The notes under the pieces were generated by a model. The model worked only from the letters and a program-made list of their open reading frames with translations, did no database searches and had not been told where the DNA came from. A stretch of DNA of 14,675 nucleotides from Acidobacteriota bacterium (lineage in GTDB: Bacteria > Acidobacteriota > Aminicenantia > Aminicenantales > Aminicenantaceae). Both the position numbers and the translations under genes were made by a program. The stretch is taken from positions 1 to 14,675 of the forward strand of contig JAHIPL010000147.1 in NCBI GenBank assembly GCA_018894615.1, written 5' to 3'. Numbering within the stretch: position 1 is the first letter of the stretch; each line of letters starts with the position of its first letter. Of the stretch, positions 571 to 14,675 are shown in pieces.

Positions 571-1508
571 ACCATATTCTTGTGTCGGGAGGCGCCGGAT
601 TTCTCGGACATCATCTCTGCGGGGTCCTTCTGAAGAACGGATCGGATGTCATCTGTGTCGATAATTTTATTTCGGGACGGAAGGACAATATCCGTGATTT
701 TTTCTGCCACCCCTATTTTGAATTGATTCGCCACGACATCATCTCCCCTCTTTTTGTGGAAGTTAAAAGAATCTATCACCTCGCCTGCCCGGCTTCCCCC
801 ATCCATTATCAGGTCAACGCCATCAAAACCATCAAAACCAATGTCCTGGGAACCATCCACATGCTGGGACTCGCCAAAAGAACCAACGCCCGCATTCTGC
901 TGGCCTCCACTTCCGAAATTTACGGCACGCCTGAAGTGCATCCGCAAAGCGAATCATACCTCGGCAACGTAAATCCCATCGGCCTTCGAAGCTGCTACGA
1001 TGAGGGAAAACGGGTTGCGGAAACACTGATGATGGACTACCACCGGCAGAATAACACCGATATTCGCATTGTCAGGATCTTCAACACATACGGCCCCGGA
1101 ATGGCAGTCGAGGACGGACGCGTCGTGAGCAATTTTATCGTCCAGGCTCTCAAGGGGCATCCCCTCACCATCTACGGCGATGGAACCCAAACCCGTTCCT
1201 TCTGCTTCGTTTCCGATATGATCCGCGGTCTGATCGCTATGATGGATACGGAAGATTTCATCGGACCCGTCAACCTCGGCAATCCTGAAGAGTGCTCCAT
1301 CCTTGAGCTGGCCGAAACGGTTATCCGCATGACCGGAAGTCGATCGAAACTGATCTTCCATCCGCTCCCTGAGGATGATCCCATCCGCCGCTGTCCCGAC
1401 ATCTCTCTGGCCCGGGAAAAGCTGAACTGGGCGCCGTCAATTCCGTTGGAAGAAGGGCTAAAACGGACCATCGACTACTTCCGGAAACAAATCGGCCTGG
1501 GAGGCTGA
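567..1508 (+). CDS. UDP-glucuronate decarboxylase / UDP-xylose synthase (NAD-dependent SDR epimerase-dehydratase family).
   Basis: The 313-aa product has an N-terminal Rossmann motif ([12 protein letters not shown]) and the catalytic YxxxK (CYDEGKR). It is collinear with the UXS family along its length: VDNFxxGRKxN, [12 protein letters not shown], NPIxTxKTNVxGT, [10 protein letters not shown], HPQxExYxGxVNPIGxRxCYDEGKR, [17 protein letters not shown], QTRSFCxVSD. Its ATG at 567 overlaps the rph stop in the sequence ATGA, which suggests translational coupling. Confidence 0.85.
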
Positions 1509-1609
1509 ATCCTCAATCATTCATCAGCAGCCCGCCCGACAACCAAATGCCACCCAAGAAAATTTCATTTTTTTGGACAAACAGAAAAATGATGCCGTCA
1601 TGTAAATCC

Positions 1610-1638
1610 TTGAATTTTCCCTGATTTAGGGTTACCAT
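1610..1638 (+). promoter_or_regulatory. Candidate sigma70-type promoter for the flotillin/aminotransferase transcription unit: TTGAAT, 17 bp, TACCAT.
   Basis: This is the only reasonable -35/-10 pair with 17-bp spacing in the 211-bp AT-rich gap between UXS and flotillin. The -10 element matches the consensus at only 4 of 6 positions. Found by eye; weak. Confidence 0.2.
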
Positions 1639-1719
1639 TAACAAACCATCTCAGAGAAGGGCACAAAAAAGGATCGAATCATAAATTAATTTAAACCAGC
1701 ATGTCCCAAGGAGGTTACG

Positions 1720-3126
1720 ATGTCTCTGGTCACCCTCTTTATTGTTTTCGGTATCATAGCCGGCGTAATAACCCTTTTTATCCTGTTCATCGCCAAACAG
1801 TACAGAAAAGTCGGCCCCAACGAAGTCCTGATCATTTCGGGGGGAAGAAAGAAAAGCGTCTCCCTTCCGGACGGGACCAAGCAGAAAATAGGGTTCCGCT
1901 TCCGTCTCGGAGGAGGAACATTTGTGTGGCCGTTCATCGAGACCGTCGATGTGCTTCCGCACGACATCATCAACATCGACATCAAAACGCCCGAGGTCAT
2001 CACTAAAAACGGCATTCACATTCTGGCCGAAGCCACGGCGCAGGTTAAAGTCGGATCGAGCGCCGACTCCATTATTCTCGCCGCCGAGCAGTTCCTCGGA
2101 GGCGGCAGGGATGGGATCCGCGGCGTCGCCGGCAATATCCTCGACGGCAAGGTCCGGGCCGTTCTCGGTACGCTGACCGTGGAGGAGATTTATACCGGAC
2201 GCCAGGAATTCGCCGACATGGTCATCGGGGTCATCGAAAAAGATTTTTCGAAGATGGGATTGACGCTTTTGTCATTCGCTCTTAAGGAAATCAGCGATAC
2301 GTCGGGATATCTGGAATCGCTGGGAAAACCACAGATCGCCGCCGCTAAGAGGGACGCCCAAATCGCAGAAGCTGAAACGGAAAAGGAAGCCATCATCAAA
2401 ACCTCCCAGGCCCGCAAGGAATCAGAAGTCGCCCGCCTCCAGTCCGAAGCTCAGATCGCCAAAGCCCAGTGGGAAAACGAAGGCAAGAAGGCTCAGTCAC
2501 AGGTCGAAGTGAACAGACAGAAAGCGCAGGCCGATTTTGCCTATGAACTGGAGCGCATCCGCCTCTCTAAAGACATTAAAAAACAACAGGCCCAGGTGAG
2601 CCAGATCGAAAAGGAAGAAGCCATCAAGCTCGAGGAACTGGAAATCTCCCGGAAACAGAAGGAGCTGGAATCCCATGTGATCAAACCGGCGGAAGCCAGA
2701 AAATTCCAGATCCAAGCGGAAGCCGACGCGGAGGGCTACCGGATCGAAGCGGAAGCCAGAGGAAAATCGGAAGCCCTCAAGATGGAAGCTGTGGCCGAGG
2801 CGGAAAAAATCCGGCAGAAAGGATTGGCCGAATCCGAAACCATGCTCCTGAAGGCCGGCGCGTGGGATAAATACAACGAGGCCGCCATCATGGAGCTTTA
2901 TCTGTCCATTCTTCCTGAGTTGGCCAGGGCCGTATCCGAACCCCTCAGCAAGGTGGATAAAATTGTCCTCATCGGCGGCGAGAAAGGAACCGGCGCCACC
3001 AAACTCACTTCCCAGGTCGCCGAGATTCTGGCGCAGATGCCGGATGTCGTCGAGTCCCTGACGGGGGTGGATCTGAAAAAGTATTTCAAGAACAAACTCA
3101 ATCCCGAAGAGAAAAAAGACTCCTGA
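1720..3126 (+). CDS. Flotillin-family SPFH/band-7 membrane scaffold protein (468 aa).
   Basis: A strong RBS AAGGAGG lies at 1708-1714, 5 nt before the ATG. There is an N-terminal TM helix ([23 protein letters not shown]), an SPFH core ([13 protein letters not shown]...VDVLPHDI...), then a long Ala/Glu/Gln/Lys coiled-coil ([12 protein letters not shown]..., EA-repeats) and a C-terminal region typical of bacterial flotillins. Confidence 0.85.
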
Positions 3127-3146
3127 TCTCCCTCAGAGAAAAACCA

Positions 3147-5489
3147 ATGATGGTATCGAATAAAGCCAATCAAATCGGGGAATCCCCAACCTTCAAGGTC
3201 ACAGCAAAAGCCAAAGCCATGAAGGCCGAAGGCATCGATGTTATCGATCTGAGCGTCGGTGAACCGGATTTCCCTACCCCGGAGAATATCAAGGAGGCGG
3301 GAATCAAAGCCATTCGGGATAATTTCACGAAATACACGCCCATCGGCGGTATTCCCGCTCTGAAGAAGGCTGTAGCCGGCCGGTTGAAGGAAGACTGCGG
3401 TCTGGACTACAAACCCAGTGAGATCATCATCTCTTCCGGCGCCAAAAGCTCCCTTTATCATCTCATTCAGGCCCTCATCAATCCCGGAGATGAAGTCATC
3501 ATCCCGTCTCCCTATTGGGTCACCTATCCGCACTCCGTCAATCTGGCCGAAGGAAAACCGGTGATCGTCCAGACCAAGGAAGAAAACGGATTTCTTCTGA
3601 CGCCCGAACAGCTCAAAGCCTCCATCACCCCCTCCACCAAGGCCCTTCTTCTCAACAACCCCTCCAACCCGACCGGCGCCGCATACACCCGGCAGCAATT
3701 GGAGGCCCTGGCGGAAATCATCCTGGATGAGGACATCACCGTCATCGCGGATGAAATATACGAAAAGCTGGTTTATGACGATTTTAAGTTTGCGAGCTTT
3801 GCCTCTCTCGGTGAAGAGATCAAGAAAAAAACAGCCGTCATCAACGGCGTGTCCAAGGCCTATGCCATGACGGGATGGAGGATCGGCTACACGGCGGCTC
3901 CGGAAGAAATCATCAACGCCATGGACCGCATTCAGGGCCACACGACATCCAATGCCAACACCATCGCCCAGATGGCCAGCCTGGAAGCGCTGAACGGGCC
4001 CCAGTATGAAATATCTCGCATGGTGGCCGAATTTCAGCGGCGCCGGAATTACATGCAGATGCGGCTTCAGTCCATCCCCGACGTTTCCTGCTACAAGTCC
4101 CAGGGTGCGTTTTACCTCTTCCCCAATTTCTCTGCCTACTACAACAAGGAATTCAATGGACATCCCATTCGGAACTCCTACGGCCTGGCCTATTTCCTGC
4201 TCATGGAAGCCAACGTGGCCATTGTTTCGGGAGAGGCTTTCGGAAACGACAACTATCTCCGTTTCTCCTATGCCAACTCCATGGAAAATCTGGAAAAGGG
4301 GATAGACAGGATCGCGGCCTCCCTTTCCCGGCTCAAAACGGCCAGGAAAGTCAAACGGATCGCCCTCAACAATGCCGTCACCCGGGTAACCGGTTCCGTC
4401 CCGGTGGAATCCACGCTCTCCCTTCAGATGCGGGATGCCCTTGTCGCGGAGATGGAATCGTCCCTTTCCTACGCAAACTATTTCGAGTGGAATGCCAATA
4501 TAAACGGAGTCATTATCCAGCTCCGGACAAACGTCCCCCATCTCAATGACTTCTGGGTTGAAAACTGGTACCCGGCCCAGCTGGAAGCCGATCTGGAGCC
4601 CCACGGCATCATTTACGCCGTCGACGGCATTCCGGGAAGAGAGCCCCGGGTTTTTTACAGCCGGGAGTCGCAGACGGGGATTCTCGTCAATACGGACAAT
4701 TACGGACCGCTCCGCAGCCTCGCCATCGGTCTTGTTTCCGATATTTCATCCCGGCTTTTTCAAGTGAACACGGTCAGAGGCATGTCGGGCGATATCGACG
4801 GTTTGGGATTCATCCTGATCGGGCCCAAGGGATCCAAAAAGACAGAGCTGTTTTTTACACTGCTGGAAAAAGAGGCGATCCGGCTGCACGCCAATGATGT
4901 GGTGTTCGTCCGTTTTTCAGGGAACGTGCCGATGGCCGATTCCGCGGAGCGCAAACTCTTTGTGCCCACACAGGCCGTGGCTGCGTATTCACCCCTGGCG
5001 CCCCTTTTTGACGGATGCAAATGTGAAAATGTCGTTCTTCGTAAAGAAGAGTGCCGGAACGAGACATGTCTGGCGACGGATGACTGCCGCCTGGACCGCG
5101 GTTCGTCCTTTTGCTATGACGCCTCCAAAAAAGCCTACGCCATGCTGGATCCGTACTGGCTGGACGGCCCGGCCAAACACATTAAAAGAACAACGCTCAG
5201 CCGGATTTTCCTTCTTCGGAACGACAGGGTGTCCCCGCCTCTTGTGAAAGCGGAAACGGAAGACGCTCTTCGTATCCTGGAAACAGGCGAAAGCCTCGGC
5301 GCCCGAATAGAAATTTCAGATTCGGCACCGGCCGTTTTTTTTAATCCCCATCTCCTCGATCGTTCATCGGACAACATGGACGGACAGCGGCAGTTCTACC
5401 GCCGGCTTCTGAACAGCACTTCCTGTTACCTGTTCAACAGCGGCGCGGCCTCCGCCGAAGATCTTTTCCAAATCATCAGCGGGAAGTGA
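3147..5489 (+). CDS. Fusion protein (780 aa): class-I aspartate aminotransferase (PLP-dependent, subgroup Ib) joined to a C-terminal ~385-aa HprK/PEPCK-superfamily P-loop kinase-like domain with a Cys-rich insert.
   Basis: Residues 1-397 are a complete AspAT: GEPDFPTP, NPSNPTGAAY, the PLP-lysine motif SKAYAMTGWRIGY, and YLRFSYANSMENL near the usual C-terminus. The reading frame continues without a stop into a second domain, nt 4338-5489. This domain contains GLGFILIGPKGSKKTELFFTLLEKEAIRLHANDVV (nt 4821-4844 encode GPKGSKKT), which resembles the HPr kinase/phosphorylase Walker-A region (G.G.LI.G.SG.GKSE..LELI.RGH.L.ADD.V). A 6-Cys cluster, CxC-x9-C-x4-C-x5-C-x8-C, lies at nt 5016-5114. Confidence 0.75.
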   Translation: MMVSNKANQIGESPTFKVTAKAKAMKAEGIDVIDLSVGEPDFPTPENIKEAGIKAIRDNFTKYTPIGGIPALKKAVAGRLKEDCGLDYKPSEIIISSGAKSSLYHLIQALINPGDEVIIPSPYWVTYPHSVNLAEGKPVIVQTKEENGFLLTPEQLKASITPSTKALLLNNPSNPTGAAYTRQQLEALAEIILDEDITVIADEIYEKLVYDDFKFASFASLGEEIKKKTAVINGVSKAYAMTGWRIGYTAAPEEIINAMDRIQGHTTSNANTIAQMASLEALNGPQYEISRMVAEFQRRRNYMQMRLQSIPDVSCYKSQGAFYLFPNFSAYYNKEFNGHPIRNSYGLAYFLLMEANVAIVSGEAFGNDNYLRFSYANSMENLEKGIDRIAASLSRLKTARKVKRIALNNAVTRVTGSVPVESTLSLQMRDALVAEMESSLSYANYFEWNANINGVIIQLRTNVPHLNDFWVENWYPAQLEADLEPHGIIYAVDGIPGREPRVFYSRESQTGILVNTDNYGPLRSLAIGLVSDISSRLFQVNTVRGMSGDIDGLGFILIGPKGSKKTELFFTLLEKEAIRLHANDVVFVRFSGNVPMADSAERKLFVPTQAVAAYSPLAPLFDGCKCENVVLRKEECRNETCLATDDCRLDRGSSFCYDASKKAYAMLDPYWLDGPAKHIKRTTLSRIFLLRNDRVSPPLVKAETEDALRILETGESLGARIEISDSAPAVFFNPHLLDRSSDNMDGQRQFYRRLLNSTSCYLFNSGAASAEDLFQIISGK

Positions 5490-5656
5490 TCTTTTTTAAA
5501 CGATGAATGATTCAACGATTTACAATGAAGATGCCTATAATAAATTCGCCGATGAGTTCCACCGGGTCATTCACGGACCCAATATTCGCAAAGTCGACCT
5601 GAAATGGCTCGAGCCTAGAGCCAAATCAGCCGGAATTCGAACCAATTTCGGCTCTT

Positions 5657-6967
5657 ATGGATGGCGATCGGCCATCTCCAGCCGCATCGCCCCAAAGACC
5701 GTCTATCTCGGCAGTTCCAAGGTCCGGCTTCCCCATCCGGCAGCAGGTTCTGGCCATTCCGGAACACAACCTGAATGTCGCCCTCGGCACGGATTACATG
5801 GGGGAAGATAAAAAGGGGTTTCTCCGCCAGGCCATGTGGACGGCGGACAGACTGGGCATGCTCGGGCTTCACGCCGGCACCAAAATCGTCACCGTGCGGG
5901 ATTCCGCCGACAAACTCAAAACCTACGGCGTTTTTATGTTCGGATTGACCGCCACCGGCAAGTCCACCTGGTCCTGCCATCAGCTCGGACTGGATCACAA
6001 AAAAGGGGAAAAAACATTTGTGACACAGGACGACATCGTTTTTCTTCAGAATGACGGTTCCGCCCTTGGGTCCGAGAATAATTTTTTCGTCAAAACGGAT
6101 GTGGAGAAGGAATACCAGGAAGCCATGTACAACGCTCTGATCGACAGGAGCGCCTATTACGAAAACGTCATGATCAAAGCCGACGGAAACGTGGATTTTC
6201 TGGACGAAAGCCTGACCGCCAACGGACGGTCCGTTCTGCAGCGTAAAAAACTGATCGTTGAACTCGGCGGGAAAAAAATCCCCATCTACACAAAATCCAT
6301 CGACCTTCCCTCTCTGGACGAGCTGGACGGCCTGATTTTTGCCTTTATCACGCGGCGAAACACCATGATGAGCTTCGCCCAGGAGCTCTCCCCCGAACAG
6401 GCCGTCCTGGCTTACCTGTGGGGAGAAAGCACCCACAGTTTCGCCAGCCAGCCCGCCAAGGCCGGGGAGTCCGTCAGGATCGTGGGGACCGACCCCTTTA
6501 TCATCGGGTCCCGCGCATCCAAGGTCAACCGTTTCTACGAAATCATCATGTCCCTCGTCAGCCGCTATCCCGGTAAAGTGAAATTCATGCAGTACAACAC
6601 CGGAGGCATGGGCGAGATCATCGAGACGAACGAAGCCGGCGGAACGTTGAACAAACAGCTCATCCGCAAGGTCAAACGGGTTCCCATTCAGCTCATGGCC
6701 CAAATTCAGAGGGGAGACCTTCGGGGAAGCAACACCTATGAAAAGAGCCTCCTGGGGACGAAGGAGATCGTTAAGGCCGAAGGACGGTCTCTGGACGAGT
6801 GGAATATTCGTCAGTTTTACAGCCGGGACAGGATCGATTTGTACATCAGGGAACTCGTCGAGGGACGACGGGCCTTCACGGAAGGCGGCCCGGAGGAGGA
6901 ACTCCCTTCGATCGAGTGGGAGACCAAAAACCGGCCGCGGCGCGGCGGTTTCACCCGTCTCAGGTAG
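5657..6967 (+). CDS. PEP carboxykinase (ATP)-like P-loop protein lacking most of the canonical N-terminal domain. The true start or frame in 5490-5810 is uncertain and the gene may be frameshifted.
   Basis: The product is collinear with the PckA C-terminal/nucleotide-binding core. Matches include GTDYMGEDKKG (PckA GGTWYGGEMKKG), LHAG (active-site His region), kinase-1a FGLTATGKST (PckA FGLSGTGKTTLS; nt 5942-5968), DDIVFL (PckA DDEHGW), TANGRS (PckA TENTRVS) and YNTGGMG (PckA NTGWNG adenine motif). Only about 45 aa precede the KK motif, versus about 200 aa in canonical PckA. The first ~20 codons after ATG 5657 are Pro/Ser-rich with no good RBS, and a 102-aa ORF in another frame (5503-5811) overlaps. 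Confidence 0.65.
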   Translation: MDGDRPSPAASPQRPSISAVPRSGFPIRQQVLAIPEHNLNVALGTDYMGEDKKGFLRQAMWTADRLGMLGLHAGTKIVTVRDSADKLKTYGVFMFGLTATGKSTWSCHQLGLDHKKGEKTFVTQDDIVFLQNDGSALGSENNFFVKTDVEKEYQEAMYNALIDRSAYYENVMIKADGNVDFLDESLTANGRSVLQRKKLIVELGGKKIPIYTKSIDLPSLDELDGLIFAFITRRNTMMSFAQELSPEQAVLAYLWGESTHSFASQPAKAGESVRIVGTDPFIIGSRASKVNRFYEIIMSLVSRYPGKVKFMQYNTGGMGEIIETNEAGGTLNKQLIRKVKRVPIQLMAQIQRGDLRGSNTYEKSLLGTKEIVKAEGRSLDEWNIRQFYSRDRIDLYIRELVEGRRAFTEGGPEEELPSIEWETKNRPRRGGFTRLR

Positions 6968-7547
6968 CCGCCCCTTTCAATTCCTTTGAGGCCAACCGCC
7001 GTTCGATGTCTTCCGCCATCAGATGAAGCAGAATCAGATGAATTTCCTGAATCCTGGCCGTGTCCGGGCTCGGAACAGCCAGGAGAACATCGACCGCTCC
7101 CCTTAACCGGCCACCGCCTTCGCCCGTCAGGGCAAGGGTATAAAGTCCTTTTTCACGAGCGGCTTGAAGCCCGCGAATCACATTGTCCGAACGGCCGCTG
7201 GTCGTGAGGCCGACAGCCACATCTCCGTTCCTTGCCAGGGCTCTAATCTGGCGGCTGAAAATGTCGGAAAAATCCCGATCATTGGAGATGGATGTGAGGA
7301 CCGAAGTGTCCGTGGACAGGGCCAGAGCGGGTAACGGTCTTCGGTCGACGCGGAATTGATTGACGATTTCCGCGGCAAAATGCTGGGACTGAGCGGCGCT
7401 GCCTCCATTTCCAAAAATATAAAGGGTGCTCCCCTGGTCCATTCGCCGGGAAATCTCCTCTAGGGCATCGGACAGAGCCCGTTCGTCCTCCCGCAGAAAA
7501 GCCCGGAAAACCGTATTCAGATTTTCAATGATGGATTCATACTTCAT
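6960..7547 (-). CDS. gmhA: D-sedoheptulose-7-phosphate isomerase (phosphoheptose isomerase, SIS domain).
   Basis: Near-collinear with GmhA: GNGGSAAxxQHFAAE, SNDxxFxDIFSRQ, GDVxxGxxTSGxSxNVI, AREKG, LTGxxGG, RIQEIH. ATG 7547 with the upstream RBS AAGGAA is preferred over the GTG at 7562 that the ORF track uses. The 3' end overlaps the PEPCK-like gene convergently by 8 bp. Confidence 0.85.
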   Translation of the reverse strand: MKYESIIENLNTVFRAFLREDERALSDALEEISRRMDQGSTLYIFGNGGSAAQSQHFAAEIVNQFRVDRRPLPALALSTDTSVLTSISNDRDFSDIFSRQIRALARNGDVAVGLTTSGRSDNVIRGLQAAREKGLYTLALTGEGGGRLRGAVDVLLAVPSPDTARIQEIHLILLHLMAEDIERRLASKELKGAAT

Positions 7548-8310
7548 GATCAGTTCCTTCACGGCGGCATTCCGTATTCAGACTTAAATCGTCCCTATTC
7601 ATCGATGATTCCAGAATATCCACTCCCTCCTGAATGACGGCCCGGGTTTTACTCATCAAGCCGTCCATCGACTCGACAATGATGCCGTTCAGTGAAATGG
7701 CCGGATGAAATTTCACTCGAACGACACCCCTTCTGATCCAGAAGCTCCCCTTGGGCATCAAATCAAAGGAGCCCGTCATGGAGATGGGGAGAATAGAGAC
7801 ACCGCTGTTTATCGCCAGAAAAAATCCGCCCCGCCGGAAGGGTCCCATTTTCCCATCGAGGCTTCGCGTGCCCTCCGGAAAAATCAAAAAGGAATAATTC
7901 CGGATTTTCATCAGCTCGGTGGCGCGTTCGATGCTCTTTTTCCCGGTGTTGATCCCCTTTCTGTCCACAGAAACAAATCCGGCAAAACGCATGGCCGGCC
8001 CGATGATCGGAATCCGGCTGACGGGCTTTTTCATGATAACCCGGACAACGTGCGGGATGACCTGGAAAACAAGCGGGCCGTCCATAAAACTGAGATGGTT
8101 GCACATGAAAACATACTTTTTCTTTTTATCCACCCATTCCTTCCCCGAAACGTCCATCCGGATTCCGACAATTTTGAAGAGAATCCAGAGCGCCCCTCTG
8201 GCCACAACAAACAACGGCGTACGAAGCCTCAGAAGAAAACAGACCAGGAGAAATGGGATAAGAAGAAGGATAAACAGAAAACAGACAGGGACAAGCAGGA
8301 GTGTTCTCAT
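7537..8310 (-). CDS. 1-acyl-sn-glycerol-3-phosphate acyltransferase family protein (PlsC-like lysophospholipid acyltransferase) with an N-terminal membrane anchor.
   Basis: The acyltransferase HxxxxD motif (CNHLSFMDG) and the FPEGTRS motif are both present. The N-terminus is hydrophobic. It overlaps gmhA by 11 bp on the same strand, implying an operon. Confidence 0.8.
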   Translation of the reverse strand: MRTLLLVPVCFLFILLLIPFLLVCFLLRLRTPLFVVARGALWILFKIVGIRMDVSGKEWVDKKKKYVFMCNHLSFMDGPLVFQVIPHVVRVIMKKPVSRIPIIGPAMRFAGFVSVDRKGINTGKKSIERATELMKIRNYSFLIFPEGTRSLDGKMGPFRRGGFFLAINSGVSILPISMTGSFDLMPKGSFWIRRGVVRVKFHPAISLNGIIVESMDGLMSKTRAVIQEGVDILESSMNRDDLSLNTECRREGTDHEV

Positions 8311-8323
8311 GGCAGCCGCCCGA

Positions 8324-10072
8324 TTATATCACAGGGCCGGGATGCTTGTCTTTCACCCTCCTGACCTGCTCGAGAAGCCCTTTTATCTCTTCCGTGGGAA
8401 AAAGGGCGAAATCCCTGGTCAAAAGTTCCAGGGCCCGGTCATAATCCTGAAGAATGATATAAAACTTCGCCGCATGGAGCAGAATGAGATGGTTTTCTGG
8501 AAAGAGGCTGAGAAGACGATCGATGATGTTCCGGCCTTCTTCCGGCCTGTCCGTCAGGGCCAGATAGGAGGCATAAGTCACATAAAAATGCTGGGACATA
8601 TTGGGACCGGTCCGAAGGAGTTCATCAAAATAGCGTTTTGCCTCATCCGGACGGCCGTTAAAGGTGTAAAAAGCCGCCAGTTCTTCATGTATCCGCGTTT
8701 TGAAACGGGTATAAAGGAAATGATCGGACCTGGAGAGAATGCTGTTGAATATCTCCAGGCTCTTCTCTTCGTTTTCACTGAGGGAAAACTGGGCGATGTT
8801 GAAACGGGCCAGAATATTCTCTCTGTCGTATTTTTTGATTCCCGTCCAGAATTCCTTTTCGCTGCTTCCAAACGCTCTGTTCTTCGGATACAGCTCCATC
8901 CCATAGAGGGCGAGAAGGCCGATCAGGACCAGAATGGAAACGGCCGGTCGCTTTCCTCCCTGCCGAAAAAGAGACGCCATGCCGCCGATAAAAAACACAG
9001 AGGGAAGGTAGAGAAATCTCCAGGCCAGAAAGGAGACAGTGGCCTCTGAGAAAATGACCAGCACGGAGGGCAGAAGAGAAAGAAGGAAGCCTGTCAGAAG
9101 AAGCGCAGGAGTGAGCCATTTTTTTTGATTTCGCCGGAACGCCGCAAGCATCACAACACCGGATACGACAGCAAGACCGCCGAGAAGCAAAAATTCAGTC
9201 CGTCCGAAGATTCTGTCCGCATCGATGGTGAATGGCAGGTTGAAGGGAAAAACCAAACGATACACATAATATCCGATGGATGCGAACAAATCTCCGAAGG
9301 GACGGCCTGAAAGCAAAAAACCCGATGAGGAGAGGGACAAAGATCTCAATCCGAACCAGGCGGCAAAAGCGATCAGGAAGGGAGACATTTCACGGACAAG
9401 AATTTTCAGTCGGCGGTTTCGGGAAAAAAATATCATCAAAAAGACGGCGGGCAAAAAAAGGGCCGTTTCCTTTGACAGGAGGGAAAAAAAATAGAACAGG
9501 CCGGACAGCCGGAGACTGTGGGAGCGGTCGGTTTTCAGGTAGCGCAGAAGCAGAAGACAGGAGAAGGCAATAAACAGGAAGGAAAGAAGATCGGTTCTCC
9601 CCGAAATCCAGGCGACATTTTCAAAATGCAGCGGGAAAAAGGAAAAAAGAAGCGCGCCGAAAAAGGAGGGGAACGGCCCCACCCCCAAGAGGGAAAGAAA
9701 ATAGAACAGGAGAGAGACATTGAGAATGTGAAGACAGATGTTCGTCAGGTGGAAAGCGGCCGGATTTTTCCCCCAGACGGAGAAATCCAGCCAGTAGGAG
9801 AGGGATGTCAGCGGACGGTAGAACTGGCTCACCCGCTCCAGCCGCCGGCTGTTTTCATCCTTGCCGAGAGATCCGCCGAAGGGCGATGTCAAAAATTTTG
9901 ATAAAAATTGCGGATCATGGAGTGCGGGATTCTCCGTGATGAGAAGCACATCGTCCCAGAGAAAATCCCCGGACATGGATGGAAGAAAGAGGGCCAGATT
10001 GACCGTGACCAGAATCAGGATGAAGACAAGGTTCTGTCTGGTTGAGGGGCTCATGATGTCGATCTTCATCAT
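8324..10072 (-). CDS. Polytopic GT-C-fold glycosyltransferase of the PMT/TMTC (COG1807-like, DUF1736-type) family with a C-terminal TPR domain (582 aa).
   Basis: About 11 predicted TM segments occupy the first ~400 aa. An early DD motif (FLWDDVLLITENP) and the TMTC-like loop motif PLHFENVAWISGRTDLLSFLF are present. The C-terminal ~180 aa is TPR-like helical repeats (YFDELL..., ALELLTRDFAL...). It follows the pilA terminator directly. Confidence 0.7.
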   Translation of the reverse strand: MMKIDIMSPSTRQNLVFILILVTVNLALFLPSMSGDFLWDDVLLITENPALHDPQFLSKFLTSPFGGSLGKDENSRRLERVSQFYRPLTSLSYWLDFSVWGKNPAAFHLTNICLHILNVSLLFYFLSLLGVGPFPSFFGALLFSFFPLHFENVAWISGRTDLLSFLFIAFSCLLLLRYLKTDRSHSLRLSGLFYFFSLLSKETALFLPAVFLMIFFSRNRRLKILVREMSPFLIAFAAWFGLRSLSLSSSGFLLSGRPFGDLFASIGYYVYRLVFPFNLPFTIDADRIFGRTEFLLLGGLAVVSGVVMLAAFRRNQKKWLTPALLLTGFLLSLLPSVLVIFSEATVSFLAWRFLYLPSVFFIGGMASLFRQGGKRPAVSILVLIGLLALYGMELYPKNRAFGSSEKEFWTGIKKYDRENILARFNIAQFSLSENEEKSLEIFNSILSRSDHFLYTRFKTRIHEELAAFYTFNGRPDEAKRYFDELLRTGPNMSQHFYVTYASYLALTDRPEEGRNIIDRLLSLFPENHLILLHAAKFYIILQDYDRALELLTRDFALFPTEEIKGLLEQVRRVKDKHPGPVI

Positions 10073-10111
10073 ACTGAAAAGAAGGAATCATCGCAATGCC
10101 GCCTCTTATGC

Positions 10112-10145
10112 AAAAAAAAAGGCGGCACGGGAAAACCGTGCCGCC
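10112..10145 (-). terminator. Rho-independent terminator downstream of pilA, minus strand.
   Basis: On the minus strand a perfect 10-bp GC-rich stem GGCGGCACGG / CCGTGCCGCC (10145-10136 and 10130-10121) has a 5-nt loop and is followed by T9 (10120-10112). It lies 32 bp after the pilA stop. Confidence 0.7.
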
Positions 10146-10176
10146 GGTTGATGCTTATTCAGATTGATGCTGAATA

Positions 10177-10713
10177 TCAGCTTCCGGATCCGCCGAGCCT
10201 TGTCTGCGGTCCGCGAATCCAGCTTCCGTTCCACATAACCAGGTCATAGTCGAAGCTGGCCATGCTGCTCGTTGTGAACATACCCGTACCGGGAGTGGTG
10301 ACATAATCACCGGATTCCTGCGTGTTGTCACGGCCGAAGGAGGCCACGACAAAATCCTGGTTTGAGGATCCGGCGATACCGTAATTTCCGTTGCAGTTAG
10401 TCTGCCCCCAGATGGAGAACGCATTGCCCCATTGGTCATTGACGGGTAAAACCGTGATGTAAAAAGGCGCCATGGTCGTGTAAAAGGCGCTTCCCGCCGT
10501 GTAGGTCCCGTTTTGGTTGTAGACCACACCATTGTCCGTCATATAATCCACCATGACACTTGAAATGGTGCTGACATCCTTCATGGTCCCTTTCTGTTTC
10601 GCCTTCTGCATGGCCGTGATGGCATTGGGGATGAGGAGAGCGGCCAAAATCCCGATAATAGCCACGACGATCAGAAGTTCGATCAACGTAAAACCTTTCG
10701 CTTTTTTGTTCAT
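10177..10713 (-). CDS. pilA: Type IVa major pilin precursor (178 aa) with a class III prepilin leader.
   Basis: MNKKAKG|FTLIELLIVVAIIGILAA shows the PilD-site hallmarks: Gly-1, Phe+1, Glu+5. The RBS GGAGG (plus-strand CCTCC at 10719-10723) sits 5 nt upstream of ATG 10713. The longer ORF-track start at 10797 would overlap the sigma54 promoter and is rejected. Confidence 0.85.
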   Translation of the reverse strand: MNKKAKGFTLIELLIVVAIIGILAALLIPNAITAMQKAKQKGTMKDVSTISSVMVDYMTDNGVVYNQNGTYTAGSAFYTTMAPFYITVLPVNDQWGNAFSIWGQTNCNGNYGIAGSSNQDFVVASFGRDNTQESGDYVTTPGTGMFTTSSMASFDYDLVMWNGSWIRGPQTRLGGSGS

Positions 10714-10760
10714 AAAAACCTCCATTTTTGATCTTTTCAAAATATTAAAATTAATTATAG

Positions 10761-10776
10761 TGCAATATGCATGCCA
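10761..10776 (-). promoter_or_regulatory. Sigma54 (RpoN) -24/-12 promoter of pilA.
   Basis: The minus strand reads TGGCATGCATATTGCA, a near-consensus TGGCAC-N5-TTGCW with GG-N10-GC spacing. The predicted TSS is about 10749, leaving a ~36-nt leader that contains the GGAGG RBS. Confidence 0.7.
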
Positions 10777-10846
10777 TTTTCCGGAATTTTTATCCATCAG
10801 ATAACAAACAAATTAAAAACGGATGAGTATCAAAACGAGGCCGGAA

Positions 10847-10884
10847 TGACACATATTGTCACCCATCGTGACAATAATTGTCAC
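10847..10884 (-). promoter_or_regulatory. Candidate PilR (NtrC-family) enhancer: two tandem palindromes TGACA-N5-TGTCA.
   Basis: The sequence is TGACAcatatTGTCAcccatcgTGACAataatTGTCAC, i.e. two identical inverted repeats whose centres are 21 bp (two helical turns) apart. They lie 70-120 bp upstream of the sigma54 promoter, and the spacer in between is AT-rich and probably bent. The TGTC half-sites agree with the PilR recognition element described in Pseudomonas. Confidence 0.5.
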
Positions 10885-10912
10885 TTTTCTGTGATGTAAT
10901 GTCCTCCGTTCC

Positions 10913-12277
10913 TCAGTCCTTCAGATCGAATTTTTCGATGAGATAGCGGAGGGATCGGTAGTTGAGCCCGAGAATCCGGGCGGATTCCTTGAGGTTTCCT
11001 CCCGTTTGACGCAGGGCTTCGGAGAGATATTTCCGTGACAGGTCATCCAGAGCGGCATTGAGGTTGAATCCATCCCGGATGGAAAGGGGGGCGGCTGTTT
11101 CGGTGGAGGATTCGAGCAGTTCCGGGGGAAGGCTGTCCCTCGTGATGGTTTCACGGTCTTCTATGGCGACGATCCGTTCCATGGTGTTCTCCAGTTCACG
11201 GATGTTTCCCGGCCAGGGATAGCGATCGAGGATGTTCATGACTTCCGGACTGATTCGCTTCATCCGGCGTTTCATTTTCTCGCTGTACTTCCGCAGAAAA
11301 TAATCGACAAGGAGGGGAATATCCCCATTCCGTTCTCTCAGCGGAGGGATGTCGAGGGAGATCACATGCAGTCGGTAGTACAGATCTTCACGAAATTCCT
11401 TCTCCGCAATTTTGTCCTTCAGATTTTTGTTGGTGGCGGAGATGATGCGAACATCGACGGGAATCTCCCGGATGCCGCCCAGCTGCCGAATGGTCCTTTC
11501 CTGGAGCGCCCGCAGAAACTTGACCTGAATCACGGAAGACATTTCACTGATTTCATCAAGGAAGAGAGTCCCCTTTTCGGCGACCTCAAACATCCCTTTC
11601 TTCAGCACCACCGCTCCGGTGAAAGCCCCTTTCACGTGGCCGAACAGTTCACTTTCCAGAAGATTCTCCGGAAGCGCCCCGCAGTTCAGGGAAATGAACG
11701 GTTGATCCCGTCTGTCGGACAGATAATGAATGGCGCGGGCGGCCATCTCCTTTCCCGTTCCGCTTTCACCCGTGATAAGAACTGTTGAATCCGTGGCGGC
11801 GATTTTTTCGATGAGGTCAAAAACGGCTTGGATCTTTTGGCTTTTGCCCACCATGTTATGAAACTCATACTTCTGCCGCAGTTCCTTTTTAAGGCGCACG
11901 TTTTCGCTCTGCAGCCGTCTTTTTTCCAATCCCTGCCTGACAATGATTTTTAGTTCATCTATGTCAAAAGGCTTCACGACATAATCGAGTGCACCGATTT
12001 TCATGGCTTCCACAGCCTGTGCGATGGTGCCGTAAGCCGTCATGAGTATCACCGGCACTTCGGGCTTTGAGGAACTGACAGCCTGCAGAACATCCATTCC
12101 TCCCATTTTGGGAAGCTTGATGTCGGACAGGACAAGATCATAATCTCCGTTTTCGATGAGTTCGAGGGCGCGCTCGGCGTTTATAGCCGTCCCCACTTCA
12201 AGGCCTTCCTTCCTGAATACCATGGAGAGAAGATCGAGGATGCCCTTCTCGTCATCTATGATCAGTATCTTTTCCAT
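10913..12277 (-). CDS. pilR: Sigma54-dependent two-component response regulator (NtrC family).
   Basis: Three domains are visible: a receiver ([10 protein letters not shown]), an AAA+ sigma54-activation domain (GESGTGKE Walker A, GAFTGA motif), and a C-terminal Fis-type HTH. RBS AGGAGA lies 4 nt before the ATG. The gene sits between a sensor kinase gene and pilA with its binding sites and sigma54 promoter. Confidence 0.85.
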
Positions 12278-12289
12278 TGTTCTCCTCTG

Positions 12290-13573
12290 TCAGCGGTAGA
12301 GGCCGTTCTCTCTCTGGGCGGGAAAGGTGATGAGGATTTCAGTCCCGACATCCTTCTCCGAAAGCAGCGATATGGTCCCTCTATACTCATCCACAATTCG
12401 TTTCACAACGGAAAGACCGATCCCCTGCCCGCTTTCAAATCCGGAATAAAAGGGCTCAAACACCATTTTCCGTCTTTCTTCCGACATGCCGATGCCCGTA
12501 TCAATAAACTGGAGATGGGTCATCCGCCTTTTCCCCTTCTTCAGGTTGATGGTGAGCGTTCCTCCATTCGGCATGGCCTTGGCCGCGTTTTTTATGAGGT
12601 TCCAGAAAAGCTGTTTGAACTGATTGGAACTGCCGTAAAAGATTAAATCCGCTTCCCTGAAATTTCCCGCCAGCTCCACGGTGTTCGGCAGATCCCCGCT
12701 GCTCTGGAGGATGAACAGGATTTCCTTCAGGACATCGGAAAGAAGGAAGGAGCTGACCACAATTTTACCCGGTGAGGAGAGAGACAAAAAATGATCAAAA
12801 GACTGGGAAATCCGGCGGGACTCGGAAACGACAATATCCATTAGCTGTTTTTTTTCGTCCGTCAGCTCGATTTCCCGGCTCAGCACCTGAATGGAACCGG
12901 ATATGGCGGCCAAAGGATTTCTGATTTCGTGCGCCAGGTGGGCGGCCATGTCTCCGGCAAGCGCGAGCTGTTTCTTTATCTCCAGTTCCCTGCGGGTCCG
13001 GTCCAGTTCAATCCTGGTTTTTCTCAGATTCCTCGTCAGATAATTGGAGAGCAGGGCGACGAGGAAAAAGGCACTCCAGGCAATAAAAATACTGTTGAGG
13101 AATACTCCGGTTTCGATCCTTTCCTCAGGATTCCCCCCGAAATAGGGAATGACGCCGAAGAAGAGGAGATCCACAAGAAGACCGAAAAAAATGGACGATA
13201 AAGCCGCTGTCAGATAAGCCGCTTTTCCGGACAAAAGAATGCCGGCGGCGACGATTTCAAAAATGTACAAAAAATAAAACGTGCCCTGAAGCCCGCCGGA
13301 AATGTAGACCAGAACGGTGATGATGAAGAGATCGATCAGAATCTGAAGATAGAGCTGCACCACGTAATGCTTCCATATGGACTGCAGCAGGAGATACACA
13401 AGGGACAACGCAAAAATCCCGAAGATAACAAAATAATAGGTATTGATTTCAAGATAGGTGGACGTGCCGAATTGAATGCTGATGGCAGCGATGAGAAGGG
13501 CCATGGCCACCGCCGCCCGGATGACAATGACCTGAAGAAGGGTTCTTCTGGTGACATTTTCATTTTTTATCAT
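12290..13573 (-). CDS. pilS: Sensor histidine kinase with ~6 N-terminal TM helices, a HisKA domain and a HATPase domain.
   Basis: H-box AHLAHEIRNPLAAISGSIQVL, N-box LFWNLIKNAAKAM, G-boxes DTGIGM and GQGIGLSV are all present, and the N-terminal 180 aa are hydrophobic. It ends 12 nt upstream of pilR. Confidence 0.8.
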   Translation of the reverse strand: MIKNENVTRRTLLQVIVIRAAVAMALLIAAISIQFGTSTYLEINTYYFVIFGIFALSLVYLLLQSIWKHYVVQLYLQILIDLFIITVLVYISGGLQGTFYFLYIFEIVAAGILLSGKAAYLTAALSSIFFGLLVDLLFFGVIPYFGGNPEERIETGVFLNSIFIAWSAFFLVALLSNYLTRNLRKTRIELDRTRRELEIKKQLALAGDMAAHLAHEIRNPLAAISGSIQVLSREIELTDEKKQLMDIVVSESRRISQSFDHFLSLSSPGKIVVSSFLLSDVLKEILFILQSSGDLPNTVELAGNFREADLIFYGSSNQFKQLFWNLIKNAAKAMPNGGTLTINLKKGKRRMTHLQFIDTGIGMSEERRKMVFEPFYSGFESGQGIGLSVVKRIVDEYRGTISLLSEKDVGTEILITFPAQRENGLYR

Positions 13574-13620
13574 CAGGCCAATCGTTTTCCGCCGGCGGAC
13601 ACGCTTTCGAAACGTGAGGC

Positions 13621-14675
13621 TCAGCCCATCTGATTCATCAAATCAAAAATGGGCAGGTACATGGAGATCACCATGACTCCGACCATTCCGCCGACAAAAA
13701 TAAGGAGAATGGGCTCAAGAATGGACAGCATTGATGCGACGGAGGATTCCACCTCGTCATCATAAAAACCGGCCATTTTGGAGAGCATGGTATCCAGGGT
13801 TCCCGTTGCTTCACCGACTCCGATCATCTGGATCATCATAAAAGGAAACCGCCCCGACTCCTTGAAGGCATCCGTCAGGCTGGTTCCCTCCGAAACCATG
13901 GAGCGGGCCTTCATGATGTTCTTTTCAACAAGAATGTTTCCGGCTGTGGAAGACGTTATTTTCAGGCTTTCCAGCATGGGTACGCCGCCGGAGAGAAGCG
14001 TACTCAAGGTCCGCGTCACGCGGGACAGCCCCACTTTTTCAATCAGGCTGCCGAACAGGGGGATTTTCAGCAAGAGGGGATCGATCACCCGACGTCCCCG
14101 GTCCGTTTTTTTGGCATAGCGGTAAAACGCGATGAGGCCGACGAGCCCGATCACGATGAACAGGATGTAGTTCTGAACAAACGTACTCATCCCCACAATC
14201 ATTCGGGTCATTCCCGGAAGTGTGGCCCCAAGCTCCAGGAATATATTCGCAAAAATCGGAATGACCTTCCACATCATAAAAATCATGACAATGACGGAAA
14301 AACCCAGAATGGCGGTCGGATAAATCATGGCCTGGCGGACCTGTGCTCTCAGCTTGACAACGTTTTCCAGGTAATCCGCCAGTCTCTTCAACATGACATC
14401 CAGCGAGCCGCTCTGTTCCCCCGAAGCGATCAGATTGCAGTAGAGGTCGTCAAAAACTTTGGGAAATTTTCTTTTGGCCTGGTTCAAAGTCGAACCTGCC
14501 TCCACATCGCCCCGGATTTCCGTTATGACCCGTTTAAAATACTTGTTTTTGGTCTGTTCGGCCAAGATCGTCAATCCCTGAATCAACGGCAGTTCCGCAT
14601 CGATCAGAACGGACAACTGCCGGCTGTAGATGGCCAGTTCCTTCAGGGCGACTTTTTTGCTTTCAAACACAGAGA
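13621..14675 (-). CDS. pilC: Type IV pilus assembly platform protein PilC (GspF family). The N-terminal ~60 aa lie beyond the window edge.
   Basis: There are two GspF/T2SF repeats: ELAIYSRQLSVLIDAELPLIQGL and ...ARSMVSEGTSLTDAF..., plus three TM regions. The M at 14670 is internal, because the first GspF repeat normally starts near residue 70. Confidence 0.85.
   Translation of the reverse strand, partial: SVFESKKVALKELAIYSRQLSVLIDAELPLIQGLTILAEQTKNKYFKRVITEIRGDVEAGSTLNQAKRKFPKVFDDLYCNLIASGEQSGSLDVMLKRLADYLENVVKLRAQVRQAMIYPTAILGFSVIVMIFMMWKVIPIFANIFLELGATLPGMTRMIVGMSTFVQNYILFIVIGLVGLIAFYRYAKKTDRGRRVIDPLLLKIPLFGSLIEKVGLSRVTRTLSTLLSGGVPMLESLKITSSTAGNILVEKNIMKARSMVSEGTSLTDAFKESGRFPFMMIQMIGVGEATGTLDTMLSKMAGFYDDEVESSVASMLSILEPILLIFVGGMVGVMVISMYLPIFDLMNQMG

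Follow-up and report, generated by a model that had tools for sequence, protein, structure and literature searches.

The gene at positions 8324-10072 on the minus strand of a 14,675-nucleotide (nt) contig from an Aminicenantaceae bacterium of the phylum Acidobacteriota (JAHIPL010000147.1; the contig as a whole is called the window below) lies directly behind the pilin gene pilA and encodes a 582-amino-acid (aa) membrane protein with a GT-C glycosyltransferase fold and a C-terminal tetratricopeptide repeat (TPR) domain. We infer, with about an even chance of being right, that this protein is a TfpW-like pilin O-glycosyltransferase and that the locus is a candidate pilin O-glycosylation module. 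We prefer this reading because the order of the two genes is conserved and coupled, because the gene comes and goes among relatives like a cassette, and because it has a close experimental precedent in TfpW, the pilin arabinofuranosyltransferase of Pseudomonas aeruginosa group IV strains (Pa5196/PA7) (10.1101/2020.04.19.049825).

The reading frame is a real gene and not a chance open reading frame (ORF), since it has more than 200 full-length homologues (41-77% identity) and the same gene is called on the near-identical contig L001. Its product is ~99.8-100% identical to the catalogued protein P0001, and all of the closest relatives of the locus come from metagenome-assembled genomes (MAGs) that bear the label Aminicenantes or Acidobacteriota. 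A preliminary description of the window had recognized a polytopic GT-C-type membrane protein with a DD motif and a TPR domain behind pilA, and our analysis bears this out, with the motifs and the TPR Pfam matches located in the following features, where TM stands for transmembrane.

8324..10072, minus strand: GT-C/TPR membrane glycosyltransferase gene (predicted), 582 aa, stop codon included
8873..10072, minus strand: membrane GT-C domain, aa 1-400, 11 TM helices, from the helix map of the structure model
8345..8860, minus strand: C-terminal TPR domain on the periplasmic side, aa ~405-576, with some 4-5 helical hairpins, from Pfam, PDB TPR matches and model helices 405-576
Conserved periplasmic residues of the GT-C protein: D40 D41 (nt 9950-9955), R86 P87, R159/D161, K201 E202, Y269-x6-P276-F277 and R352/Y355

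The structure model of the 582-aa protein contains the conserved transmembrane core fold of GT-C enzymes, and its best structural match is the protein O-mannosyltransferase Pmt4/Pmt2. The acidic GT-C motif is present as D40-D41, within a WDD at aa 39-41 (nt 9950-9958), directly after TM1 and hence in the first extracytoplasmic loop; the segment PLHFENVAWISGRTDLL is found at aa 147-163 (nt 9584-9634). Because the number of TM helices is odd, the TPR domain lies on the same, periplasmic side as the DD loop. This domain is matched by TPR_14 (2.6e-10), TPR_19 and TPR_2 at aa ~460-570. A weak structural match to 2ho1 (PilF) was also obtained. Across 39 GT-C orthologues and paralogues DD, RxD, KE and R352 are invariant. 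For the product of 8324-10072 the model thus supports a GT-C fold, a DD site that faces the periplasm and a TPR domain at the C-terminus.

The preliminary description called this protein TMTC-like; membership of the TMTC family itself is not supported by DUF1736 or by motifs M5 and M6. We compared it with the TMTC motif set M1-M7 taken from PMC7801869 (DD, SHKSYRP, RxD, KE(T/Q)xxT, DW, PxxP and ERxxY): M1 (DD), M3 (RxD) and the K-E-T of M4 are found, M2 (F-Y-R-P) and M7 (W-R-F-L-Y) are partial, and M5 (DW) and M6 (PxxP) are absent. In TMTCs, DUF1736 (PF08409) is the loop that joins TM7 to TM8, and every TMTC matches it at E<1e-19 (PMC7801869); the 582-aa protein gives no match to this domain even at E<=1, nor is DUF1736 among the 25 families most often matched by 39 family members. 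As for the motifs named earlier, DD stands as assigned and PLHFEN...GRTD falls in the TMTC RxD region (M3), not in DUF1736. The PMT_2 match of the protein is just over the cutoff (28.2 vs 26.1 bits), and PMT_2 matches 19 of the 39 family members at E<=1 (best 2.5e-9). The protein gives no MIR or PMT_4TMC match, its loop 4 has 44 residues and its C-terminus is TPR; it has no Wzy_C domain, only a sub-threshold Wzy_C_2 match (17.4 vs 28.5 bits) inside the TPR region. Since DUF1736, M5, M6 and a MIR domain are absent, the protein is a GT-C/TPR enzyme of TMTC-like architecture outside the TMTC and PMT families as defined. A profile search puts the superfamily at 87,317 cluster representatives with E<=1e-3, some of which match by their TPR region, and at 5,105 with E<=1e-30. 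The group of orthologues is small and counts about 15 representatives that score more than 350 bits.

The proposed acceptor and the elements that would control expression of both genes are as follows.

10177..10713, minus strand: pilA, 178-aa prepilin with the cleavage motif G/FTLIE, mature form 171 aa (N_methyl 1.2e-9)
10112..10145, minus strand: intrinsic terminator between pilA and the GT-C gene, stem GGCGGCACGG-TTTTC-CCGTGCCGCC followed by T9
10761..10776, minus strand: sigma-54-type promoter TGGCAT-N5-TTGCA upstream of pilA, from a pattern search
10847..10884, minus strand: pair of 16-nt palindromes TGACA-N6-TGTCA in tandem, 22 nt apart, at some 75-110 nt upstream of the sigma-54 promoter

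The start of pilA at 10713 (MNKKAKG/FTLIELL) agrees with its homologues and with the L001 gene call. Mature PilA has a Gly-rich tail with a terminal Ser and a single Cys, so that a disulphide-bonded C-terminal loop is excluded; it also gives weak GspG/T2SSG-type matches. The parts of the PilA model (pLDDT 65) with the lowest confidence are the Ser/Thr/Gly-rich stretches 135-152 and 171-178, which are probably flexible. The terminator behind pilA that the preliminary description reported is confirmed: 9 of the 10 bp in its stem are G-C, and a T9 run comes after it. It matches the design of the pilin-accessory cassettes of P. aeruginosa, in which a common Rho-independent terminator after the pilin gene is thought to attenuate accessory expression (PMC11841053). 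The GT-C ORF starts 105 nt past the pilA stop, and the only candidate for a promoter of its own is a sigma-70 match (9/12) lying across the start codon. In about 50 related loci the sigma-54 element is found ahead of the first pilin gene, one per locus, and by pattern search it never lies directly upstream of pilA2, the second pilin gene of some loci, or of the GT-C gene. Since pilR, which encodes a sigma-54 activator, is the gene immediately upstream of pilA, we regard the palindromes as candidate PilR enhancer sites.

To examine the linkage of GT-C and pilin genes, we collected 100 loci from genome and metagenome scans and mapped the window proteins onto each of them; loci with at least 650 nt of upstream sequence were taken as informative (n=85). 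A pilin gene lies immediately upstream of the GT-C gene, on the same strand, in 54 of these 85, and the adjacency holds at only 41-55% GT-C identity while the genes downstream vary by clade. The expectation that the gene pair would be conserved in related genomes is therefore correct for these loci, and it fails for a nested clade, discussed below, and for close relatives that lack the GT-C gene. In the window's clade the order is pilA-GTC-plsC-gmhA, followed by PEPCK; in a larger clade it is pilA1-pilA2-GTC, followed by a convergent, 25%-identical second GT-C/TPR gene and often by a PAP2-TPR gene. The breakpoints of synteny fall after the GT-C gene and not between pilin and GT-C genes. The pilin gene is more distant in L043 (1.4 kb upstream of GT-C) and in L097, where it lies 3.4 kb upstream of a 39%-identical GT-C gene with two Wzy_C (TfpO/PglL-type) genes between them. 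The L097 stretch (985-6704, plus strand) reads sigma-54 promoter, pilin, Wzy_C+TPR protein (491 aa), Wzy_C protein (668 aa) and GT-C, with a further GT-C gene 3 kb on, so that O-antigen-ligase-type and GT-C-type enzymes stand behind a single pilin gene.

The terminators add a second kind of coupling. In the two-pilin loci a perfect 11-12-bp-stem terminator follows pilA1 in 31/31 and none stands between pilA2 and GT-C, the gap between these two genes being mostly 78-230 nt. Because the terminator is behind pilA1 and not behind pilA2 in all 31, pilA2 and the GT-C gene probably form one transcription unit there. In the one-pilin loci, a perfect-stem terminator separates pilA from GT-C in 14 of 23, as it does in the window. 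Of 36 PilA1-type pilins, 35 have Ser or Thr as their last residue, behind a Gly-rich tail; this is not so in PilA2-type pilins. A rule by which two pilins would mean two GT-Cs is not strict, since several one-pilin loci also hold a second GT-C gene.

A reciprocal search found pilins 60-62% identical to the window's PilA in L103-L107, where the GT-C gene is absent and the order is pilB-T-C-S-R-pilA1-pilA2-plsC-gmhA, followed by PEPCK and the aminotransferase gene (e.g. L103:8001-10840). Because these loci have the same neighbourhood without the GT-C gene, the latter behaves as an optional insert, accessory to pilin, whose site is exactly behind the pilin gene or genes. By the same token plsC and gmhA, which L103-L107 keep, have long stood beside the pil cluster and carry no information on the GT-C enzyme.

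Some of these loci carry further GT-C/TPR genes. In L006 the second TPR/GT-C paralogue (7650-9716, minus strand; about 690 aa, 25% identity) is convergent to the pilin-linked GT-C gene, and a PAP2_3 phosphatase-family protein with TPRs (9817-11088, plus strand), often found behind the second GT-C, follows it. This arrangement of three TPR-bearing membrane enzymes in a row recurs in most clade-B loci (L003-L012, L018, L025 and others). L018 (1-389) and L020 (362-2026, plus strand) each have another TPR/GT-C (PMT_2) paralogue just ahead of pilB, and the pilus cluster is therefore flanked by GT-C/TPR genes on both sides in these loci.

Taken together, these arrangements suggest the following model. 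The GT-C-fold glycosyltransferase would sit in the inner membrane as a pilin accessory enzyme, with a catalytic site (D40-D41 in loop 1, R159/D161, K201/E202 and R352) that faces the periplasm. It would take a single sugar from a polyprenyl-phosphate-linked donor, which a GT2 synthase encoded elsewhere in the genome would make and which would then be flipped across the membrane, as in three-component periplasmic systems, where a GT2 charges polyprenyl phosphate with the sugar, a flippase carries it across and a GT-C enzyme transfers it (PMC11127046). The C-terminal TPR domain would recruit the acceptor, the membrane-anchored major pilin PilA, which would be O-glycosylated on exposed Ser/Thr before it enters the type IVa pilus. 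Two candidate sites for the sugar are the TTPGTGMFTTSS loop, which is flexible, and the Ser/Thr conserved at the C-terminus. The GT-C gene would be expressed far below the level of pilA, because sigma-54/PilR-driven transcription must read through the strong pilA terminator unless a weak promoter of the gene's own is used.

Several observations weigh against this model. The preliminary description had pointed to a Ser/Thr/Gly-rich C-terminal half of the pilin; the strings it quoted are present, and the enrichment in Ser and Thr is mild (22% S+T vs 16% in the N-terminal half). Mapping of acceptor sites on the PilA model was abandoned, its pLDDT being too low for the purpose. The terminator is strong and a promoter belonging to the GT-C gene is not established. 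About one third of the orthologues with readable upstream sequence are not beside a pilin gene: they include a nested clade of about 15-18 orthologues (44-49% identity), with unrelated neighbours (glycoside hydrolases, uvrBC, thymidylate kinase) and no conserved partner genes, and some basal clades. The superfamily is huge, and three more distant members that we sampled (P0148, P0144 and P0153) have no pilin neighbours, so that the fold alone is uninformative on the acceptor. All of the synteny comes from a single phylum, and shared ancestry therefore explains part of it. Finally, neither the window nor the ~10 kb that follow on an NCBI contig of 99.6% identity contain a GT2/polyprenyl-phosphate glycosyltransferase or flippase gene.

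The last point agrees with the earlier statement that the gene for donor synthesis lies outside the window. A GT2 gene was also sought further along the contig, where we found lipid A genes, ComEC and metabolic genes only. The suggestion that such a gene might be encoded nearby finds candidates in relatives: putative polyprenyl-phosphate sugar synthases occur near the locus in L018 and L020 only, as a 230-aa GT2 beside an SDR gene in L020 and as a 410-aa GT2 after a GDP-heptose-type operon in L018. The best NCBIfam matches of these two proteins are AglJ, dolichyl-phosphate-hexose (Dol-P-hexose) transferase, ArnC and PpgS, all under the curated cutoffs, with AglJ/Dol-P-hexose transferase the best for the 410-aa protein. 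The L018 operon (14156-21511, plus strand; partly present at L025:9246-11695) stands beside paired GT-C genes and encodes an SDR dehydratase/epimerase, an HddC-like nucleotidyltransferase, an HddA-like heptose-7-phosphate kinase, a GmhA-like isomerase, a GmhB phosphatase, a transaldolase, two methyltransferases and the 410-aa GT2. A polyprenyl-phosphate-heptose donor pathway is a possible function for this operon, which is seen in that sub-clade only.

Other functions have to be weighed against pilin glycosylation. The structural match to Pmt4/Pmt2 would also fit a broad-specificity periplasmic protein O-glycosyltransferase, of the PMT, TMTC or general O-glycosylation kind, which would act on many envelope substrates, with pilin at most one among them and the adjacency to pilA of historical origin. 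TPR domains serve generically for protein binding, orthologues that left the side of pilA are maintained in other contexts, and these genomes carry many TPR/GT-C paralogues, such as the three within 22 kb in L018. However, these paralogues have distinct TPR domains, which argues for divided, specific acceptors, and a housekeeping enzyme would not be expected to be inserted exactly after the pilin gene or, as in 31 loci, to be joined to pilA2 with no terminator in between, so that we consider such a generalist unlikely. The GT-C gene is probably co-transcribed with the genes for a PlsC-like acyltransferase and GmhA that follow it, which would suit an ArnT- or GtrC-like enzyme that modifies lipid A, the lipopolysaccharide core or an exopolysaccharide. 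This too is improbable in our judgement: plsC-gmhA stands behind pilins also where the GT-C gene is absent and is not beside the GT-C gene in clade B, and TPR domains are characteristic of protein-directed GT-Cs (TMTC and TfpW). For both of these reasons of gene order we rejected GmhA and PlsC as partners of the GT-C enzyme through a heptose or lipid link.

The protein could, in principle, do without catalysis and serve as an accessory or assembly factor of the pilus, a TPR scaffold that retains a GT-C-like membrane domain, as has been suggested for the TfpY-type accessory proteins, which promote assembly and leave pilin unmodified (PMC11841053). TPR proteins such as PilF act in pilus biogenesis, and PilF (2ho1) is the weak structural match mentioned above. 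The invariance of the residues that bind metal and phosphate in GT-C enzymes (DD, RxD, KE and R352) is hard to explain without catalysis and makes such a role barely credible. Pilin glycosylation might, at the other end, be part of something larger. The orthogroup would then be a bacterial functional counterpart of the TMTCs: it would draw an unusual sugar from a polyprenyl-phosphate monosaccharide to O-glycosylate a pilin that is folded and anchored in the membrane, and the second GT-C and the PAP2-TPR protein of the sister clades would belong to a multi-enzyme periplasmic pilin-modification island. A heptose derivative is one candidate for the sugar, because the GDP-heptose-type operon, the methyltransferases and the AglJ-like polyprenyl-phosphate sugar synthase lie beside paired GT-C genes in L018/L025. 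We attach little probability to this extended version.

A type IVa pilus cluster has its 3' end on the minus strand of the window (10913..14670, and pilA), with pilB and pilT further upstream in relatives. The remaining genes on this strand are listed below.

10913-12277, minus strand: pilR (Pfam)
12290-13573, minus strand: pilS (Pfam)
13621-14670, minus strand: pilC, cut by the window end (Pfam)
7537-8310, minus strand: PlsC-like acyltransferase, start 13 nt past the GT-C stop
6960-7562, minus strand: GmhA, following the PlsC-like gene

The PlsC-like acyltransferase and GmhA are the constant last genes of the pilus-cluster strand. On the other strand, PEPCK is broken in the window (~5503-6967, plus strand) into ORFs 5503-5811 and 5657-6967 in different frames, with a breakpoint near 5730-5741. 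Contig L001 (~99.4-99.6% identical) has about 255-266 extra bases at the breakpoint and an intact 615-aa PEPCK; the NCBI MAG contig L110 (GCA_018897505.1) aligns without a gap across it, with no gene called there, and the deletion is therefore common to an independent assembly. At 3147-5489 (plus strand) a class I/II aminotransferase of 780 aa in total carries a fused C-terminal half, ~380 aa long, without a Pfam match. Relatives keep this long form (783-789 aa), and L106 and L107 have a 405-aa version. About 6 kb past the left end of the window, L110 (99.6% identical) carries a ComEC-type gene (DUF4131 + Competence + Lactamase_B; 5065-7428, plus strand) adjoining LpxK and a lipid A acyltransferase, so that these pili may possibly serve for DNA uptake. 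The window gave no matches in Rfam and tRNA scans.

Pilin glycosylation alters the surface chemistry of the pilus, and in Pseudomonas it protects against pilus-specific phages. If our reading is true, the pilA/terminator/GT-C-TPR cassette logic also operates in Aminicenantes, an abundant uncultured lineage of sediments, and this strategy of defence or surface tuning would be ancient and widespread. One branch of the bacterial TPR/GT-C superfamily, which counts thousands of sequence clusters, would also gain a concrete and testable acceptor. The practical value is limited in a lineage without culture. What would be new is a pilin accessory GT-C/TPR glycosyltransferase in an uncultured phylum; the arrangement itself is already known elsewhere and does not define a new class. 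The preliminary description had held that a pilin-glycosylating role would be new for such a protein, and this is overtaken by TfpW, which has the same architecture, position and terminator and is required for pilin glycosylation (10.1101/2020.04.19.049825).

Among known systems, GtrA/GtrB/GtrC and ArnC/ArnEF/ArnT share the general mechanism that we assume for the window's GT-C enzyme. In contrast to it, they modify glycans or lipid A with GT-Cs that lack TPR domains, and the window holds the GT-C component alone. The PMTs (GT39; yeast Pmt1/2/4 and actinobacterial Pmt) differ from the 582-aa protein by their MIR beta-trefoil and PMT_4TMC domains, in place of which it has a TPR domain. TMTC1-4 (GT105), the eukaryotic cadherin O-mannosyltransferases, share with it 11 TM helices, a C-terminal TPR domain on the non-cytoplasmic side and motifs M1, M3 and M4, but it lacks their DUF1736, DW and PxxP and has a much shorter TPR array. 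TfpO is encoded right after pilA and targets a C-terminal Ser. TfpO/PilO and PglL resemble the proposed enzyme in pilin O-glycosylation, and most PilA1-type pilins end in Ser/Thr; unlike it, these enzymes are Wzy_C proteins that transfer preassembled glycans linked to undecaprenyl pyrophosphate (Und-PP), and in L097 true Wzy_C genes of the TfpO/PglL type stand alongside the GT-C gene, not in its place.

The closest comparison is with TfpW, the sole experimentally characterized member that we found, our literature searches having returned no other pilin-linked TMTC-like or PMT_2/TPR enzyme. TfpW, of 646 aa, spans the membrane with 11 TM helices; its N-terminus is cytoplasmic and its C-terminal TPR domain periplasmic, with a DDx motif in loop 1 and YX6PFX7P in loop 4. 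ArnT was its best modelling template, and it is encoded immediately downstream of pilA and needed for glycosylation of pilin with D-arabinofuranose (D-Araf) (10.1101/2020.04.19.049825). The window's protein differs in length (582 vs 646 aa) and phylum, and neither D-Araf pathway genes (DprE1/DprE2, PRPP transferase) nor a TfpX-like gene are found among the annotated genes of the window or of related loci. Its counterpart of YX6PFX7P is Y269-x6-P276-F277 in periplasmic loop 4, with P276 invariant and the last Pro not at +8. In other respects the 582-aa protein agrees with the published description: it likewise has a cytoplasmic N-terminus, 11 TM helices, a DD in periplasmic loop 1, a periplasmic TPR domain and an ArnT-like GT-C fold, and its gene stands behind pilA and a terminator, in a position conserved in relatives.

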